From Minisyncoccota bacterium (lineage in GTDB: Bacteria > Patescibacteriota > Minisyncoccia > Phycocordibacterales > VMEP01): a stretch of DNA of 64,000 bases. Position numbers and translations under genes: made by a program. Positions 8,805 through 18,565 of this stretch are shown piece after piece. The stretch lies in NCBI GenBank assembly GCA_041661305.1, contig JBAZUR010000001.1, positions 313,986 through 377,985 of the forward strand, written 5' to 3'. Numbering within the stretch: the stretch's first letter is position 1; each line of letters opens with the position of its first letter. The notes below the pieces were generated by a model, which did not search any database, was not told the origin of the DNA, and worked only from the letters and a program-made list of their open reading frames with translations.

Positions 8805-11150
8805 TTAACGCACCGTCCAGTTATCTTTACTGTTTAGCACCCTTGTCACTCGATTCATAATTTCATCAAGCTCTACATCACTTAATGTTTTTTCTTCGGA
8901 AAGAAAGACGAGATGAAATGCATATGAAATCTTTCCATTTTTTTCAAATCTATCAAACAAATCTATTCGCACAAGCAATTCCCCTGCCTCTTTTTTAATA
9001 ACCCCTAGAACTTCCTCTTCGCTTACTCCGCCCCCCACAAACACAGCAATATCACGAAGCGCGAACGGATAAGGGGAAACATTTTTATAATTTACCGCCG
9101 GCAAAGAAATCTTTGTTGGAACATTATCGCTTGTTGGTTCAGATAATTTTGCAATAAACGCATCAAAGTCTAGCTCAACAATGCATGGCTTTTCGTTAAC
9201 TATGAAATTATCGACGATACTAACTCCGAGGGATTCTTCTATTTCTGCGATAATACTTTTTGCCTCACCAACAAAACTACTCTTCTTTATTCCATCATCA
9301 ATTGCAAAAGATAATTTCCTAACCTCTGTGTTCTTTGTAAACACATTGCCAAATTCAAAAATCTTAATTACTTTTTGCCCAAGAAGAGGAGCATTGTGAA
9401 TGTTTAATTTAAGAGATTCTTCAATCCCCGAAGCAATATTTGAACGTAGTTTTTCTTTATCATCGGCAAGCCCTTTTACGATTGCGACCTCACCTTTATT
9501 GCCAAAAGTGTAAGTCATTACCTCAGAAAACTCGCGAGCAAGTAGTATTTCGCGAATTTTGTTCTCATAATACATACGCTTATGAATTGCTCCGGTATGA
9601 GAAAGCTTTGGTAGGCTTGGCACAAGTTTGTCATAACCCAAAATACGCCCTATTTCTTCGGCCACGTCTTCTTTAATACGGATATCTAAACGTTCAGAAG
9701 GAACATTTATCACATATCGTTCTTCGCTTAAGTCGTCTACCACCCTTCCGTATCCAACTATTTTTCTTGTTGTCGAAAATTCTTCGATTGTTTCTATTAT
9801 AACTTTTCCATGTACTCTTGTAGAGTGAACAATCTTCCCGTCTCCAAGATACATACCAACATGATCAACTCCGCTAGGAACTTTCTCCCCTTTCAAGAAA
9901 TCCACTGATTCAAAATAAATTTTTCCCTCGCCTGAATTAGCAAACACTAAATCTCCGAACCTTAACTCTTCTAAAGTTACTTTTTTTGAAAAAACGTATT
10001 TATCGACAGAAATACTTGGCATCCAAATACCTTTGTATAAATAACTAATCAAGGAAGAGCAGTTAAAAGCAGAAGGTGCGTCTTCGCGCATAATTGAAGG
10101 ATTTTTGTATGGCACCCCGACAACAGCTTTATATGTTCCTGTTATGTAGTCCTGTGGAATTATTTTTTCAAAAGAAAAAGAAAGACGCTTCAATGTACTT
10201 TCTATATCACTATCAGTATATGTAGTTCCTAAAATCAGGTTGAGTTCCGGAAGCGAAATTCCGACATAATATTCTGTATCTTTGCGTGGATATACATCAA
10301 CGACTTCGCTTGCCATTACTTCACCACAAATTTCTTTAATTAAATTCGCTGTCATATAAAGACCTTCTTCCACAAGTGAGTTCGCAATACCGTTTTCAAA
10401 GCGCTTAGATGCATCAGTTCGAAGGTCATATTTTTGTGCTGTTTGGCGAATTAAACTTGGATTAAAGTTGGCACTCTCAAGAACAACACTAGTCGTGTCT
10501 TTGCTTATACCGCTATACTTACCGCCTTTTATGCCAGCAAGGCCGAGTACTTTTTCGTCATCAGCAATTACAAGAGTCTCTCCATCGAGGTTCAAGGTCT
10601 TTTCATCAAGCGTAGTAAACACCTCCCCGTTCTTAGCAAAACGAGTACAGAGCGCACCCTTAATACTTCGTGTGTCATACGCATGCATCGGCTTATTAAG
10701 CGCAAATTGCACGTAATTAGTGGCATCAACTATGTTGTTGATACTTCGCTGTCCAATCGCCTCAAGACGCGATTTTAGCCATTCTGGGCTGTCGCCAACA
10801 AACACACCGTCAATACGCATACTCATAAATCGTGTACAAAACTTTGCATCACCAATTGCGACAATGGGAGCAACTACTGAATCGCCCAAAAAATTATTGT
10901 CTTTTTGAACACGCTCGTCTTCTTTAAAAGTGAGGCTCAAGTCCGCACAGATTTCGCGTGCCAAACCACGATGCCCTAATGCGTCGTGCGCACGGTTTGG
11001 AAGAATTTTAATATCGTAAACTGTATCGTTCGGCAAAGAAATTACCTCCTCTACTTCAAACGACTTTTTGTTTAAAGTATCAGCAATAACAACATCACTT
11101 GGAAGAGTTTCAATAATATAATCTTGTAGCCATTGTTTAGAGAATTTCAT
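8805..11150 (-). CDS. pheT: phenylalanyl-tRNA synthetase beta subunit with an inserted NlpC/P60-like domain; lacks the B2 tRNA-binding domain
   Basis: B1 (ILPNRAHDALGHRGLAREI), B3/B4, B5 (LKRLSFSFEKI), B6/7 (ERLDIRIKEDVAEEIGRILGYDKL) and B8 are recognisable. About 140 aa between B5 and B6 carry an NlpC/P60 signature (FNCSSLISYLY ... FGDLVF ... VDHVGMYLGDGKIVHST). Confidence 0.85.
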   Translation of the reverse strand: MKFSKQWLQDYIIETLPSDVVIADTLNKKSFEVEEVISLPNDTVYDIKILPNRAHDALGHRGLAREICADLSLTFKEDERVQKDNNFLGDSVVAPIVAIGDAKFCTRFMSMRIDGVFVGDSPEWLKSRLEAIGQRSINNIVDATNYVQFALNKPMHAYDTRSIKGALCTRFAKNGEVFTTLDEKTLNLDGETLVIADDEKVLGLAGIKGGKYSGISKDTTSVVLESANFNPSLIRQTAQKYDLRTDASKRFENGIANSLVEEGLYMTANLIKEICGEVMASEVVDVYPRKDTEYYVGISLPELNLILGTTYTDSDIESTLKRLSFSFEKIIPQDYITGTYKAVVGVPYKNPSIMREDAPSAFNCSSLISYLYKGIWMPSISVDKYVFSKKVTLEELRFGDLVFANSGEGKIYFESVDFLKGEKVPSGVDHVGMYLGDGKIVHSTRVHGKVIIETIEEFSTTRKIVGYGRVVDDLSEERYVINVPSERLDIRIKEDVAEEIGRILGYDKLVPSLPKLSHTGAIHKRMYYENKIREILLAREFSEVMTYTFGNKGEVAIVKGLADDKEKLRSNIASGIEESLKLNIHNAPLLGQKVIKIFEFGNVFTKNTEVRKLSFAIDDGIKKSSFVGEAKSIIAEIEESLGVSIVDNFIVNEKPCIVELDFDAFIAKLSEPTSDNVPTKISLPAVNYKNVSPYPFALRDIAVFVGGGVSEEEVLGVIKKEAGELLVRIDLFDRFEKNGKISYAFHLVFLSEEKTLSDVELDEIMNRVTRVLNSKDNWTVR

Positions 11151-14659: not shown

Positions 14660-15241
14660 TTAAACCTTATCAGCAAAAACAACAAGGCGATTGGAGTAGC
14701 TCTGCATCGTTTTATCCCATACGCCCTCGCAAGTAATCAGATTGAGATGCGCCTTTCCATCATTTGAACTAAATACATTTGGAGCAACTTCTTTCTCGTC
14801 GTATATCCGAATCTCACGCACCTCGAAAACAACACTGTTCCCCTTTCCATCCTCGACATAGATCTTGTCTCCCTTTTTTAGTCTGTTCAGATCGTCAAAG
14901 ACTGCAGGAATATTGTTTTTCCAACCAAAGTGTCCTGTAATAACCGCTGTTCCCTCTTCTCCCGGGCGTGGTCCAATTTTAAGCCACCCCGCGATGTCAG
15001 GCACTTTCGGTGTATCCATTACACCGTCTATAGCAATTCCTACTTCTTCAACAGACGCATCAACTTCAATGGCTGGAATGCGTAGGTTCATTGGCAACAA
15101 TTCTGGATATTCAATAAAAGATACCTTGCTGTCACCTGTTGAATTACGTGGTGTAAAGTAAGAATAAAGAACAGCCGAAACAATGAACCCTATAAGAAAT
15201 ACTATTGCGAGTGTTTGATTTGAAGAGATTTTTGATTTCAT
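14660..15241 (-). CDS. sortase (transpeptidase), N-terminally membrane-anchored
   Basis: N-terminal TM, conserved His (VITGHFGW), catalytic TLxTC-type motif LNLITCEG, conserved Arg near the C-terminus (YSNRLVVF). Confidence 0.8.
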   Translation of the reverse strand: MKSKISSNQTLAIVFLIGFIVSAVLYSYFTPRNSTGDSKVSFIEYPELLPMNLRIPAIEVDASVEEVGIAIDGVMDTPKVPDIAGWLKIGPRPGEEGTAVITGHFGWKNNIPAVFDDLNRLKKGDKIYVEDGKGNSVVFEVREIRIYDEKEVAPNVFSSNDGKAHLNLITCEGVWDKTMQSYSNRLVVFADKV

Positions 15242-15348
15242 AAACTTGAGAGGATTTAATCCTAAGGCGACATCCGTATCAAAACGGAACCATAAACATA
15301 AACTTCACAGTACACTTTTTAATCCTTCGCCAGAAATCTGGTGAGTAT

Positions 15349-17217
15349 TTAAACCGTGCGCTTTTTTAAGACCACCTTGAGTGTAGTTGAGACCAATGCG
15401 ATAACCCCTATCAATGTGGCAACAAACCATAAAGTATTTCCTCTTTCTGGTGGGAACCCTGCGTTAGGAAAACCAACGGTTGCTCCTAGAACTTCAGGTA
15501 CAACAACTGTAGCCGATGAAAAATCGACGGCTGTTAAGCCATTGGCGTAGCCCACGGCTGTGCCTATATTTGTCGTTGTTTGAGTAATATTTGTCTGACA
15601 AGTAAACGACCATGTTTCGTTACTCTCAAGCAAGTTATTACTGTTGATGTCTCCAGGGTGTCCCGTAACGCGTCCTGGTAGACCAGTACACTTGTCGTCG
15701 GTAATGCTGACGTTCGACAATGGCGCTGTTCCTGGATTAGTTACTGTATACGCATAAGTGACAGCTCCTCCGCCAATCGGCAAAACTGATACGCTTGGCT
15801 TTTTTACTAAATGTATTAATGGTGGTGTTACAGCCGAACCAACAACGACAGTTGCATTCGCAGTGTCATATGTGTCCCATCCGTTATAGAAACCACGAGC
15901 AGTTGCTGTGTTTGTTTCAGTTTGAGAAACTGTTTTAGTACAACGGTATATCCATGCTTCAGACAAGTCGAGCCACGAGTTATTATTTGTATCTCCCGAA
16001 ACAAAATTTACCTGACTACACTTGTTATCCTTAACCCATACATTACTCATCGCAACTGGACCTATATTTGTTGCTGTGTAAGTGTAGTTGACTACCCCAG
16101 CACCAAGAGGTAACGCAACAGGACTTGGTATTTTTGTAATGTTAATAAGTGGCAATGGAGAGAAGGTGCTACCGCCCGTAGATGATGGTGTTGGAGGTGG
16201 TGGTGTATCTGTGTTGGTAATAGTACAAGTTTTACTATCGCCCAAAGCAAGAGTCACGCTGCCACTTGAATTACAGTCTCCGCTAAAAATTGCTGTATAT
16301 GATGGGTTCACGTTTTCGCTCACCACATAAGTACCAGCTGAGAGTGAGTAGGCGGTCCCTGGTGTTACAGCTCCAAGCTGTGGACTACCAGAAACATCAA
16401 CACCCGCACTCTTCACATGTATTGTAAAGTCAGAAGAAACGGCCGTCCCTCCACTCGTGTTAATGACAGTCTTAATAACACGGAGAGTGGTTGGCACAGT
16501 AATTGTGTTTGAGTCAGTTGTAACGGTATGACCAAAAGCCAACACTCTTCCTAAGAGGTGTGCAAAATGCCCCAAAGTAACCCCTGTAGAGCCGAGAGTA
16601 TCGGCAATTATATTACCAACAAAGGTTGGTGTCGGTGATGTTGCAGAGTTCGCTCCAATTGAGGCAAGCCCTGTTGGTGTCCAAAACACATCTGAAGCGC
16701 TCGCACCATTTATCAAAACAACCTTGGAGTTAGCTCCTGTTGTAAGCGCACCACCTGATCTGAAAATATATGTCCCAGGACCATCGAGGGTCACAGTGGT
16801 ACTTAGTGCTATATCCATTGTCCCACTACTAGAGTAACAACCTGGAGTATATGTTCCAGACAAAACAACGTTGGCACCAAGAGATGTACACGCCTGACTA
16901 TTTAAATTTGCCAAAGCCGTTGATTGAGCCGCCCCATTTATACATGGCACAACAGCTTGGCTTAGTGGCGTAACGGTAATCCCATTAATTGATATCGGAG
17001 CTGTGTCTGGTGGTGTGGTATAACAAACATTTCCATTAATAGCTGTCTCAAGTCCAGCATTCAAGGAGTTTGTCCAAGTATCAGAAACAATACCGAATGT
17101 ACTGGCAGTACCAAGTGTTGGTGTAGATGCTGCGGAAACGACAACGGGATTGGCAAATCCTGCAACAAACGCGACTGCTACTGCGACTGCTATTAAATTG
17201 TTTTTGAGTTTTTTCAT
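15349..17217 (-). CDS. secreted DUF3494 (ice-binding-like) / DUF11-repeat surface protein with C-terminal TM-plus-basic-tail anchor (candidate sortase substrate)
   Basis: Signal peptide MKKLKNNLIAVAVAVAFVAGFANPVVVSAAS (the track ORF starts at an upstream GTG; the ATG at 17217 is preferred). DUF3494-like LGTASTFGIVS...GNV. Pro-rich linker TPPPPTPS. Two DUF11-like repeats (xxGxxVTYTYTxTNxGxxxxSNV). C-terminus GFPNAGFPPERGNTLWFVATLIGVIALVSTTLKVVLKKRTV. Confidence 0.65.
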   Translation of the reverse strand: MKKLKNNLIAVAVAVAFVAGFANPVVVSAASTPTLGTASTFGIVSDTWTNSLNAGLETAINGNVCYTTPPDTAPISINGITVTPLSQAVVPCINGAAQSTALANLNSQACTSLGANVVLSGTYTPGCYSSSGTMDIALSTTVTLDGPGTYIFRSGGALTTGANSKVVLINGASASDVFWTPTGLASIGANSATSPTPTFVGNIIADTLGSTGVTLGHFAHLLGRVLAFGHTVTTDSNTITVPTTLRVIKTVINTSGGTAVSSDFTIHVKSAGVDVSGSPQLGAVTPGTAYSLSAGTYVVSENVNPSYTAIFSGDCNSSGSVTLALGDSKTCTITNTDTPPPPTPSSTGGSTFSPLPLINITKIPSPVALPLGAGVVNYTYTATNIGPVAMSNVWVKDNKCSQVNFVSGDTNNNSWLDLSEAWIYRCTKTVSQTETNTATARGFYNGWDTYDTANATVVVGSAVTPPLIHLVKKPSVSVLPIGGGAVTYAYTVTNPGTAPLSNVSITDDKCTGLPGRVTGHPGDINSNNLLESNETWSFTCQTNITQTTTNIGTAVGYANGLTAVDFSSATVVVPEVLGATVGFPNAGFPPERGNTLWFVATLIGVIALVSTTLKVVLKKRTV

Positions 17218-17242
17218 TTTTTTATAATATTTAATTATTGCT

Positions 17243-18565
17243 TTAATAATGCTCACTTATAAATCCGCGTGTTATTGTTCCAAAATTTCCCAAAGCCGGA
17301 CTAATCCCTACCCTTGCTTGAAATTCAGCCAAAGCCTCACGAGTCAAGACTCCAAAGTAAGACGTGGCACCAACTCTAGACAGAGCCACAGCAGCCGAAC
17401 CTTTGTTTTCTGAAATCAAAAACTGTTGAAGAGCTAATACATCACTACCTCTACCACCCTCCCTAAGGTTGGCTGTAATTGCTCGGACTTCTTGTCCAAT
17501 GCCACGGGAAGAAGCTCCGGGGATACAGGCAGTGCCCGTTGTTATGCTGAATTTATTTCCCGAAAAACATCCTGAGTCATTCATAGTGGTCACACTTGAA
17601 GAAACGCAATTGCGACCAGTTGTTATGCTAAATTTATTTCCAGAAAAACATCCAGAGTCGGTTTCGTTAACTGAAGATTGAGTTGTATAGGTTGTAGTTA
17701 CAGATGAAGCTGGGGTTGCAGGCACAGCAGGTGTAGCAGAAACCGTAGGAGTCACTGTTGTAACAGCTGGAATTGCTGGTGTAGCGGGAGTAGTGGAAAT
17801 AGAAACCGAAGGAATATTAACGGAATTCGCATCAAGAGTAACCGCGGTCTGTGCAAGTGCTCTACCATTTAACGTTGCGCCAGTATTCAGCACAATCGCT
17901 GTCTGGTCCAAAATATTTCCATTAAAAACGGCTCCTGTGCCGATAGTTGTCTGACCTGCTACTACCCAGAAAATATTACTGGATTGCGCTCCTCCACTTA
18001 AAATAATTTTAACGTTTGAACTAATCTCAAGATTCTGTGCTATCTGAAAAATCCAGACATCATTCGCACCACCTGAAATGGTAACGTCAGATGGTATTGT
18101 TACGCCTGTACCCCATTTGTATAATCCGGGAACAAGTGTCATTCCGCCTATGTTTCCGGCACCTAATTCAGTCGCGGTAGGATTTGTTCTACCCGCACCG
18201 TCAGTGTAGGCAGTTTCCATATTACTGATTGAGGTAGTCATATTAGATGGTGTTGGAACAGCATAATCAGAGGCATACACTTTCCCGGTAACTTGTACTG
18301 ATGTAGAAAATGCTGATGCAGAAGGAAGAATCAACCCGAATCCGGTTATAAGTGTTGCGGCTGCTGGACTAACCCCAATATCACCAACAACTAAAGTGGT
18401 GCCTGTAGTCGATATTCCAGATTTTGCCAAAATAGCAAAATTTCCAGCTGACCCAAGATTAATCACTTCAGGTCCTGCTGCAAGCACAGCTATTGGCGCT
18501 GTTCCTACAAAAACAAGGGAGACAGCCAACGCTACTGCTGATAAGTTTTCATTAATTTTTTTCAT
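17243..18565 (-). CDS. secreted DUF3494 (ice-binding-like) protein with Cys-containing tandem repeats and C-terminal PG_binding_1 domain
   Basis: Signal peptide. AGNFAILAKSGISTTGTTLVVGDIGVSPAAATLITGF matches the DUF3494 start. Two copies of DSGCFSGNKFSITTG. C-terminal LQQFLISENKG...GVLTREALAEFQ peptidoglycan-binding fold. Its stop overlaps the upstream GTG-ORF of the next gene. Confidence 0.65.
   Translation of the reverse strand: MKKINENLSAVALAVSLVFVGTAPIAVLAAGPEVINLGSAGNFAILAKSGISTTGTTLVVGDIGVSPAAATLITGFGLILPSASAFSTSVQVTGKVYASDYAVPTPSNMTTSISNMETAYTDGAGRTNPTATELGAGNIGGMTLVPGLYKWGTGVTIPSDVTISGGANDVWIFQIAQNLEISSNVKIILSGGAQSSNIFWVVAGQTTIGTGAVFNGNILDQTAIVLNTGATLNGRALAQTAVTLDANSVNIPSVSISTTPATPAIPAVTTVTPTVSATPAVPATPASSVTTTYTTQSSVNETDSGCFSGNKFSITTGRNCVSSSVTTMNDSGCFSGNKFSITTGTACIPGASSRGIGQEVRAITANLREGGRGSDVLALQQFLISENKGSAAVALSRVGATSYFGVLTREALAEFQARVGISPALGNFGTITRGFISEHY
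17530..17660 (-). repeat. tandem ~72-nt coding repeat (2 copies) inside the DUF3494 gene
   Basis: gttgttatgct(g/a)aatttatttcc(c/a)gaaaaacatcc(t/a)gagtc seen at about 17540 and 17612. Encodes DSGCFSGNKFSITTG twice. Confidence 0.6.

Follow-up and report, generated by a model that had tools for sequence, protein, structure and literature searches.

Additional domains of aminoacyl-tRNA synthetases (aaRS) are usually editing, RNA-binding or protein-interaction modules, and some of them are hydrolases nested within the synthetase, such as CP1 of LeuRS, IleRS and ValRS, INS of ProRS, and B3/4 of PheRS. These domains have unrelated folds, act on aminoacyl-tRNA and have free-standing relatives in AlaX, YbaK and CtdA. 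The canonical bacterial PheRS beta subunit, solved for Thermus thermophilus (1pys/2iy5), Staphylococcus haemolyticus (2rhq) and Escherichia coli (3pco), presents the domain order B1, B3/4, B5, B6/7, B8 and is encoded in a pheS-pheT operon. The NlpC/P60 cysteine peptidases include secreted DL-endopeptidases (Clostridioides difficile Acd24020, 7cfl; E. coli MepS/Spr; Bacillus subtilis LytE/CwlO; Mycobacterium tuberculosis RipA/B) as well as YkfC (B. subtilis, Chlamydia trachomatis) and dipeptidyl peptidase VI (DPP VI, B. sphaericus), which bind the free L-Ala amine through Asp256 and a Tyr residue of SH3b. Cytosolic NlpC/P60 enzymes degrade murein tri-/tetrapeptides in B. subtilis and in the genome-reduced Chlamydia, leaving the precursors untouched (PMC2954226, PMC9928106). 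The present analysis deals with a gene in which both kinds of protein meet: pheT in a stretch of 64,000 nucleotides (hereafter, the window) from a Minisyncoccota bacterium (contig JBAZUR010000001.1), whose product is a PheRS beta subunit with an NlpC/P60 domain inside.

The pheT gene is a single uninterrupted open reading frame (ORF) of 781 aa plus stop, and its product is identical to a protein recorded in a metagenome-assembled genome (MAG) named Candidatus Paceibacterota. It can be assigned to the bacterial PheRS beta subunits, as it scores above the TIGR00472 cut-off, contains the B3_4, B5, B6/7 and FDX-ACB domains and adjoins pheS, whose stop codon lies 2 nt ahead of the pheT ATG. Foldseek comparison with solved bacterial PheT chains gave E values of about 1e-45 to 4e-47. 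The domain order and the pheS-pheT operon are those of canonical PheRS beta. However, the beta2-beta3 hairpin of B5 accommodates a nested enzyme domain of 139 residues (Table 1). The original prediction had placed this insert between B5 and B6/7, a location that was discarded, since the two halves of B5 flank the peptidase on both sides. The C-terminal half of B5 holds the R-x-D...E...EE..R..GY motif, and its residues R487, D489, E494, E498, E499, R502 and G505 show no variation across an alignment of 58 homologues. The tRNA_synthFbeta match of the following module covers aa 512-616.

Table 1. Coordinates of pheS, pheT, the downstream peptidase gene and the domains and catalytic residues of PheT (positions of the window; counts refer to the sets of representatives described in the text)
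Feature	Position	Strand	Remarks
pheS, PheRS alpha, 258 aa	11153..11929	(-)	Pfam tRNA-synt_2d 299 bits; TIGR00468 273.7 bits vs cut-off 237
pheT, PheRS beta with nested peptidase	8805..11150	(-)	TIGR00472 pheT_bact 409.5 bits vs cut-off 402.65
B1-like N-terminal region, aa 1-104	10839..11150	(-)	TIGR00472 match begins at model position 157
B3/4 editing domain, aa 105-276	10323..10838	(-)	Pfam B3_4 197 bits
B5 N-terminal half, aa 285-331 (beta1, alpha1, alpha2, beta2)	10158..10298	(-)	
NlpC/P60 (C40) cysteine-peptidase domain, aa 332-470	9741..10157	(-)	In the beta2-beta3 hairpin of B5
Tyr348	10107..10109	(-)	Equivalent of transition-state-stabilising Tyr226 of BcYkfC; Tyr in 115/119 representatives
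Cys364, nucleophile, motif F-N-C-S-S	10059..10061	(-)	Cys in 117/119, Ser in the other 2
His430, catalytic base, motif V-D-H-V-G	9861..9863	(-)	His in 117/119; aligns with the catalytic His of solved enzymes
His442, third triad residue, motif I-V-H-S	9825..9827	(-)	His in 112/119
B5 C-terminal half, aa 471-510 (beta3, alpha3)	9621..9740	(-)	Pfam B5 model 33-67 at aa 472-506
B6/7 catalytic-like module, aa 511-690	9081..9620	(-)	Pfam tRNA_synthFbeta 32 bits
B8 = FDX-ACB anticodon-binding domain, aa 692-781	8808..9077	(-)	Pfam FDX-ACB 62.7 bits
C39_2-like papain-fold peptidase, 185 aa	8231..8788	(-)	Pfam PF13529 51.2 bits vs cut-off 24

The identity of the nested domain is clear. NLPC_P60 (PF00877) matches aa 359-466 of the full PheT with 41.5 bits, above its cut-off of 23, and the excised segment of 141 aa reaches 48.1 bits. 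This segment also matches the NCBIfam models RipB, p60 and RipD and 36 solved NlpC/P60 chains, so the observation is real and well above chance; the continuous PheT frame with an NlpC/P60 domain inside it, as originally read from the sequence, is confirmed. The insert presents the papain-like alpha+beta fold, the non-permuted order of Cys, His and third polar residue, and a Tyr in place of the Gln of papain. Its nearest structural and sequence relatives are all DL-endopeptidases, and no fold or sequence likeness was found to known aminoacyl-tRNA editing domains (B3/4, CP1, INS/YbaK, AlaX, DTD). The nested domain folds independently, and the peptidase is cytosolic, being part of an aaRS and lacking a signal peptide.

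Compared with the secreted DL-endopeptidases, the PheT peptidase has neither signal peptide nor wall-binding domain (LysM, SH3b) and resides in a cytosolic aaRS, a longer segment that terminates in D-A-P takes the place of the W-G-G of P-Y-x-W-G-G, and Asp237 and Arg255 are replaced in the clade of the window protein. The family also carries an extra conserved beta-hairpin at aa ~406-427 (window ~9870-9935), between the G-D-L-V-F motif and the catalytic His, which adds ~14 residues and is absent from the solved DL-endopeptidases. The protein encoded at L038 (4905-5567) and the protein P0225 have a further insertion of ~19 residues at the same hairpin spot.

Regarding the catalytic residues, the ordered signature with a complete Cys-His-His triad noted in the original prediction was borne out. 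An alignment of 58 homologues, reaching down to 50% identity, shows no variation at Tyr348, Cys364, His430 or His442, and these residues are 94-98% conserved among 119 representatives of 50%-identity clusters, to which the conservation counts of the insert refer. Cys364 aligns with the catalytic Cys of 7cfl, 2hbw and 4xcm, and Tyr348 corresponds to Tyr226 of Bacillus cereus YkfC (BcYkfC), described as stabilising the transition state (PMC2954226). Five of the seven exceptions at His442 are Gln, Asn or Asp, also polar, and clearly inactivating substitutions were found in only about 3 of the 119 representatives. The Tyr/Cys/His/His machinery is under purifying selection, and the residues of the S1 pocket are kept across the family.

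In BcYkfC, gamma-D-Glu is recognised by Tyr226, Asp237, Ser239, Arg255 and a small residue at 257 (PMC2954226). The equivalents in the PheT family are Y348 (97% of representatives), D363 (85%), S365 (92%), R379 (84%) and S/T/A381 (95%). Because these gamma-D-Glu pocket residues are kept family-wide, the family at large looks like a working gamma-D-Glu-X amidase. The window protein itself keeps Tyr348, Ser365 and Ser381 and has Lys at 384. Its clade shows a coupled triple change at codons 363 (10062-10064), 379 (10014-10016) and 384 (9999-10001), with few intermediates: D363/R379/Q384 are kept in 98 of the 119 diverse representatives, and S(N)/S/K are found at these positions in 109 of 120 close homologues. 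In NlpC/P60 enzymes generally, this Asp and Arg are highly conserved as a pair (PMC2954226). This change, together with Asn350, suggests that the substrate specificity of the window's clade may have shifted from that of the rest of the family. Membership in the YkfC/DPP VI subfamily was rejected, because position 380 is hydrophobic (Ile, Met, Val or Leu in 110/119 representatives, with Ile/Met/Val in place of Asp256) and Pfam scans found no SH3b domain in PheT or in the free-standing forms described below. Moreover, the partner gene is of the C39_2 type instead of YkfA/YkfB.

The architecture is widespread. PF00877 was found at the same place in all 120 of the best database relatives of PheT (51-100% identity; NCBI, JGI, ENA and Logan assemblies), and clustering at 90% identity gives at least 120 protein clusters with this architecture and insert site. 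When the insert alone was searched against 1.84 billion cluster representatives, 168 matches were obtained at E<=1e-10; 114 of the best 148, taken as 50%-identity representatives, are full PheT proteins matched at about aa 340-480. In GTDB species representatives, fused pheT lies directly after pheS in 40 of 44 loci (40 species-level genomes). The organisms named at these loci are Paceibacterota, Campbell-, Yonath-, Lloyd- and Nomurabacteria and similar groups, and a taxonomy check places Campbellbacteria in the Parcubacteria group of Patescibacteria. The survey of orthologs that had been proposed found the insert in the PheT of many Parcubacteria.

From the unusual architecture and the slightly lower GC content of the insert (0.33-0.34 vs about 0.40 elsewhere), one could imagine a chimeric assembly, an intein or a mobile element inserted recently, but the probability of an artefact or selfish element is negligible. 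The Pfam scan of PheT gave no match at E<=0.1 to Hint, intein or LAGLIDADG/HNH families, and the insert is present at the same site in all 120 closest homologues, in the clusters and representatives just described and in the 40 species-level genomes. It diverges in step with the rest of PheT and, in the 120 homologues, is as conserved as B6/7 and B8 or more so, B3/4 being the best-conserved part of the protein. Thus, the intein was rejected on the missing Hint families, the presence in all these homologues and the co-divergence, and the chimera and mobile insertion on the lineage-wide conservation. With recurrence in hundreds of independent assemblies, the reading as a stable domain fusion without intein has held. 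Membership in a defence system was also discarded, as a PADLOC scan gave no match for PheT, the C39_2-like protein or the fusion protein P0129.

The second component of the locus is the gene that begins 16 nt downstream of the pheT stop. It had been read as a second papain-fold, C39_2-like peptidase, and this proved correct: it scores well above the PF13529 cut-off (Table 1) and has no signal peptide. As in other Peptidase_C39_2/YvpB-like proteins, the Gln, Cys and His residues are kept (Gln10 in 115/123, Cys25 in 120/123 and His124 in 123/123 sequences). Unlike them, the partner family is small in size (about 170-200 aa), signal-less, restricted to Patescibacteria (179 matches) and without a characterised member. 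Among the 35 loci with fused pheT whose flanks are long enough to tell, 27 have C39_2 as the gene immediately downstream of pheT, and 2 others have it no more than 3.4 kb away.

The peptidase also exists outside PheT. Proteins of 200-235 aa consist of the B5 N-terminal half, NlpC/P60 and the B5 C-terminal half, and in a rough neighbour-joining tree they nest at several places within the PheT-fused clade, a scattering that suggests repeated splitting of B5-NlpC/P60 from PheT. The outgroup of the tree was P0127, a protein of 1183 aa with nine tandem NlpC/P60 domains (Pfam 707 bits over 9 stretches). At three places C39_2 comes after the free-standing gene, with 54 nt between them in L049 and with overlapping frames in L050 and the P0159 contig. 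No PheRS gene is found near the free-standing gene of L050. In two further cases, P0129 (397 aa; L045 6001-7194) and P0131 (392 aa; L046 370-1548), B5-NlpC/P60 is fused to C39_2 in one polypeptide. In L045, P0129 has as neighbours murG, mraY, scpAB and the genes of a Peptidase_S11 carboxypeptidase and a CAP-domain protein, and its vicinity contains no PheRS gene. Since B5-NlpC/P60 leaves PheRS and yet keeps, or fuses with, C39_2, the data suggest that the conserved partner of the NlpC/P60 module is the second peptidase and not PheRS. The original prediction linked the activity to translation or to an editing-type chemistry; this is not supported, as the unit separates from PheRS in L045 and L050 and keeps C39_2. 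Both B5 halves are kept in all free-standing forms, where the PheT-specific EE..R..GY motif decays; the simplest explanation is that they are retained for folding reasons.

A different arrangement was observed at L020, L021, L025, L038 and L047/48. These loci have no pheT, and a single-chain protein of 382-389 aa occupies the pheS position (L020 3627-4796(-), L038 3760-4908(+), L047 2794-3963(-)). It consists of tRNA-synt_2d plus FDX-ACB, the architecture of mitochondrial PheRS, and the domain scan found no B3/4 editing domain in it. The loci keep the GT2...gyrB-thrS-dnaE synteny and belong to some Parcubacteria, e.g. Zambryskibacteria, and the free-standing B5-NlpC/P60 gene adjoins the single-chain gene in all of them, with a 4-nt overlap in L038. 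The single-chain protein remains below the cut-offs of TIGR00469 pheS_mito (220-234 vs 258) and NF051887, "PheS-related mystery ligase SrmL" (234-257 vs 300). A recent origin from the local pheS/pheT was rejected, as it shares 29% identity with the window PheS and 25% with the window B8. Neither a bacterial single-chain PheRS nor SrmL turned up in the literature search, and AARS Online lists PheRS-M solely as mitochondrial-like (PMC11580382).

Regarding the function of the module, the explanation that we favour, to which we give about an even chance, is that of an active cytosolic gamma-D-Glu-type amidase that rides on PheT and forms a two-peptidase module with C39_2. An ancestor of many Parcubacteria, within the Patescibacteria or candidate phyla radiation (CPR), would have gained a classical non-permuted NlpC/P60 cysteine amidase in the B5 beta2-beta3 hairpin. 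The enzyme could act on small soluble peptides of the cytosol, cleaving in them an amide bond of the gamma-D-Glu-X (murein-peptide-like) type by the usual acyl-thioester mechanism, and, together with the co-transcribed C39_2, would constitute a two-step peptide-degrading or salvage module. PheRS beta would act only as a constitutively expressed scaffold, whereas aminoacylation and B3/4 editing would be unchanged and not mechanistically coupled to the peptidase. The position of the fusion gene of L045 beside murG, mraY and Peptidase_S11 was counted in favour of this cell-wall-type reading, and the host has a cell wall, since sortase and PG_binding_1 proteins are encoded in the window.

Several points weigh against this explanation. 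We infer the gamma-D-Glu-X substrate by homology alone, and of the five S1 residues three are missing from the window protein, with N350 at the hydrophobic position 228, N363 at Asp237 and S379 at Arg255. The Asp256 and SH3b that give the recycling enzyme YkfC its specificity for a free L-Ala N-terminus are absent here, and the surroundings of pheT showed no genes for murein recycling (permease, amidase, LD-carboxypeptidase). In the five single-chain loci, which come from at least 4 species-level genomes, a PheS-type gene is still the immediate neighbour of the free-standing one; the explanation covers neither this nor the retention of both B5 halves. Furthermore, a PDB profile search with C39_2 gave only non-significant matches, to the IdeS-type papain-like protease (E 0.28).

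The alternatives differ in substrate or in the need for catalysis. The peptidase could be active and work with C39_2 on a substrate unrelated to peptidoglycan, in protein or peptide processing, on other gamma-glutamyl compounds or in obtaining amino acids from imported peptides in auxotrophic symbionts. All the evidence for catalysis and for the C39_2 partnership applies equally to this possibility, and the S1 pocket rebuilt by the coupled change in the window's clade, the conserved extra hairpin by the active site and the missing recycling genes point in the same direction. Nevertheless, about 85% of the family retain the gamma-D-Glu recognition residues and the closest relatives are DL-endopeptidases without exception; a non-peptidoglycan substrate is considered rather unlikely. 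A non-catalytic role is very improbable. The insert could bind tRNA or a subunit and in this way make up for the coiled coil missing from the 258-aa PheS and the B2 missing from PheT; however, the triad and oxyanion Tyr are conserved over deep divergence with hardly any inactivated representatives, and the domain persists as a separate gene away from PheRS. It is also slightly acidic, with a median pI of 5.8, for which an RNA-binding role was disfavoured.

The last alternative couples the domain to tRNA or adenylate, with Cys364 attacking the aminoacyl ester of (mis)charged tRNAPhe or Phe-AMP. The ester could be hydrolysed as extra editing, or a Phe-thioester could be passed to an acceptor, with C39_2, distantly BtrH_N-like and thus with some likeness to an acyltransferase fold, as a possible transferase. 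The NlpC/P60 superfamily includes acyltransferases that use acyl-thioesters from ester donors (LRAT family), and the insert gave a weak LRAT match (E 0.08) in the Pfam scan, while the BtrH_N match of C39_2 is sub-threshold (22.4 bits vs 29.7). The domain sits physically inside an aaRS, its free-standing forms keep both B5 halves, and some of their genes adjoin the single-chain PheS+FDX-ACB that lacks B3/4 (the L020, L021, L025, L038 and L047/48 loci). Such tRNA-coupled chemistry is disfavoured and, in our opinion, improbable as a whole; its specific form, in which Cys364 of the synthetase takes up Phe or a near-cognate amino acid in thioester linkage and hydrolyses it or transfers it via a BtrH-like C39_2, is slightly less probable still. 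If it were true, acyl capture by Cys364 would be a new kind of editing site or a ribosome-independent aminoacyl-transfer pathway within PheRS, and the kept B5 halves and the adjacency to single-chain PheS would reflect continued docking onto the synthetase.

With respect to novelty, the component families are known, and the peptidase-in-aaRS architecture is undescribed in the searched literature: no description was found of a papain-fold peptidase inside an aaRS or of the Parcubacteria NlpC/P60-C39_2 pair. The earlier statement that no aaRS with a papain-fold amidase module was known thus stands for the literature; however, databases already flag the domain in precomputed Pfam matches, and NCBI names some members "C40 family peptidase". 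The insert resembles the aaRS hydrolytic domains CP1, INS and B3/4 in being nested and in occurring also as a free-standing protein in other lineages, but differs from them in its papain-like fold, its peptide-type pocket and its peptidase partner. A complete and apparently active peptidoglycan-type cysteine amidase is housed within a structural domain of an essential synthetase across a large uncultured, genome-reduced radiation. The lineage-specific cytosolic papain-fold pair appears in three architectures (PheT-nested, free-standing and mutually fused) and provides a practical entry point to the turnover of peptides or cell wall in CPR bacteria, a group with a mostly obscure physiology, as well as a natural case of domain insertion, fission and refusion.

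Other features of the locus should be mentioned. The PheRS of the window is a reduced one: its alpha subunit is short, without the N-terminal coiled coil that binds tRNA in T. thermophilus PheRS, and the Pfam scan gave no PF01588 match in PheT, so that B2, the oligonucleotide-binding (OB) fold tRNA_bind, was not found in the beta subunit. The minus-strand gene order is GT2 glycosyltransferase, PEGA-domain protein, pheS, pheT, C39_2-like gene and gyrB, followed by thrS and dnaE on the opposite strand, a housekeeping stretch in a low-GC genome.

As for the organisms, many TPA_asm MAGs labelled "uncultured Candidatus Saccharibacteria bacterium" (L001, L003, L004, L008 and others) carry a PheT insert 40-86% identical to that of the window protein, in the same gene context. 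Their label was probably assigned generically and in error, and a MAG labelled Gracilibacteria (L010) may be mislabelled likewise.

Finally, at window positions 14660-18565 a sortase gene precedes the genes of two large surface proteins of the Ice_binding-like type (PF11999), of which one carries PG_binding_1 and the other DUF7507/DUF11 repeats; the group has the look of an adhesin or ice-binding cluster anchored by sortase.

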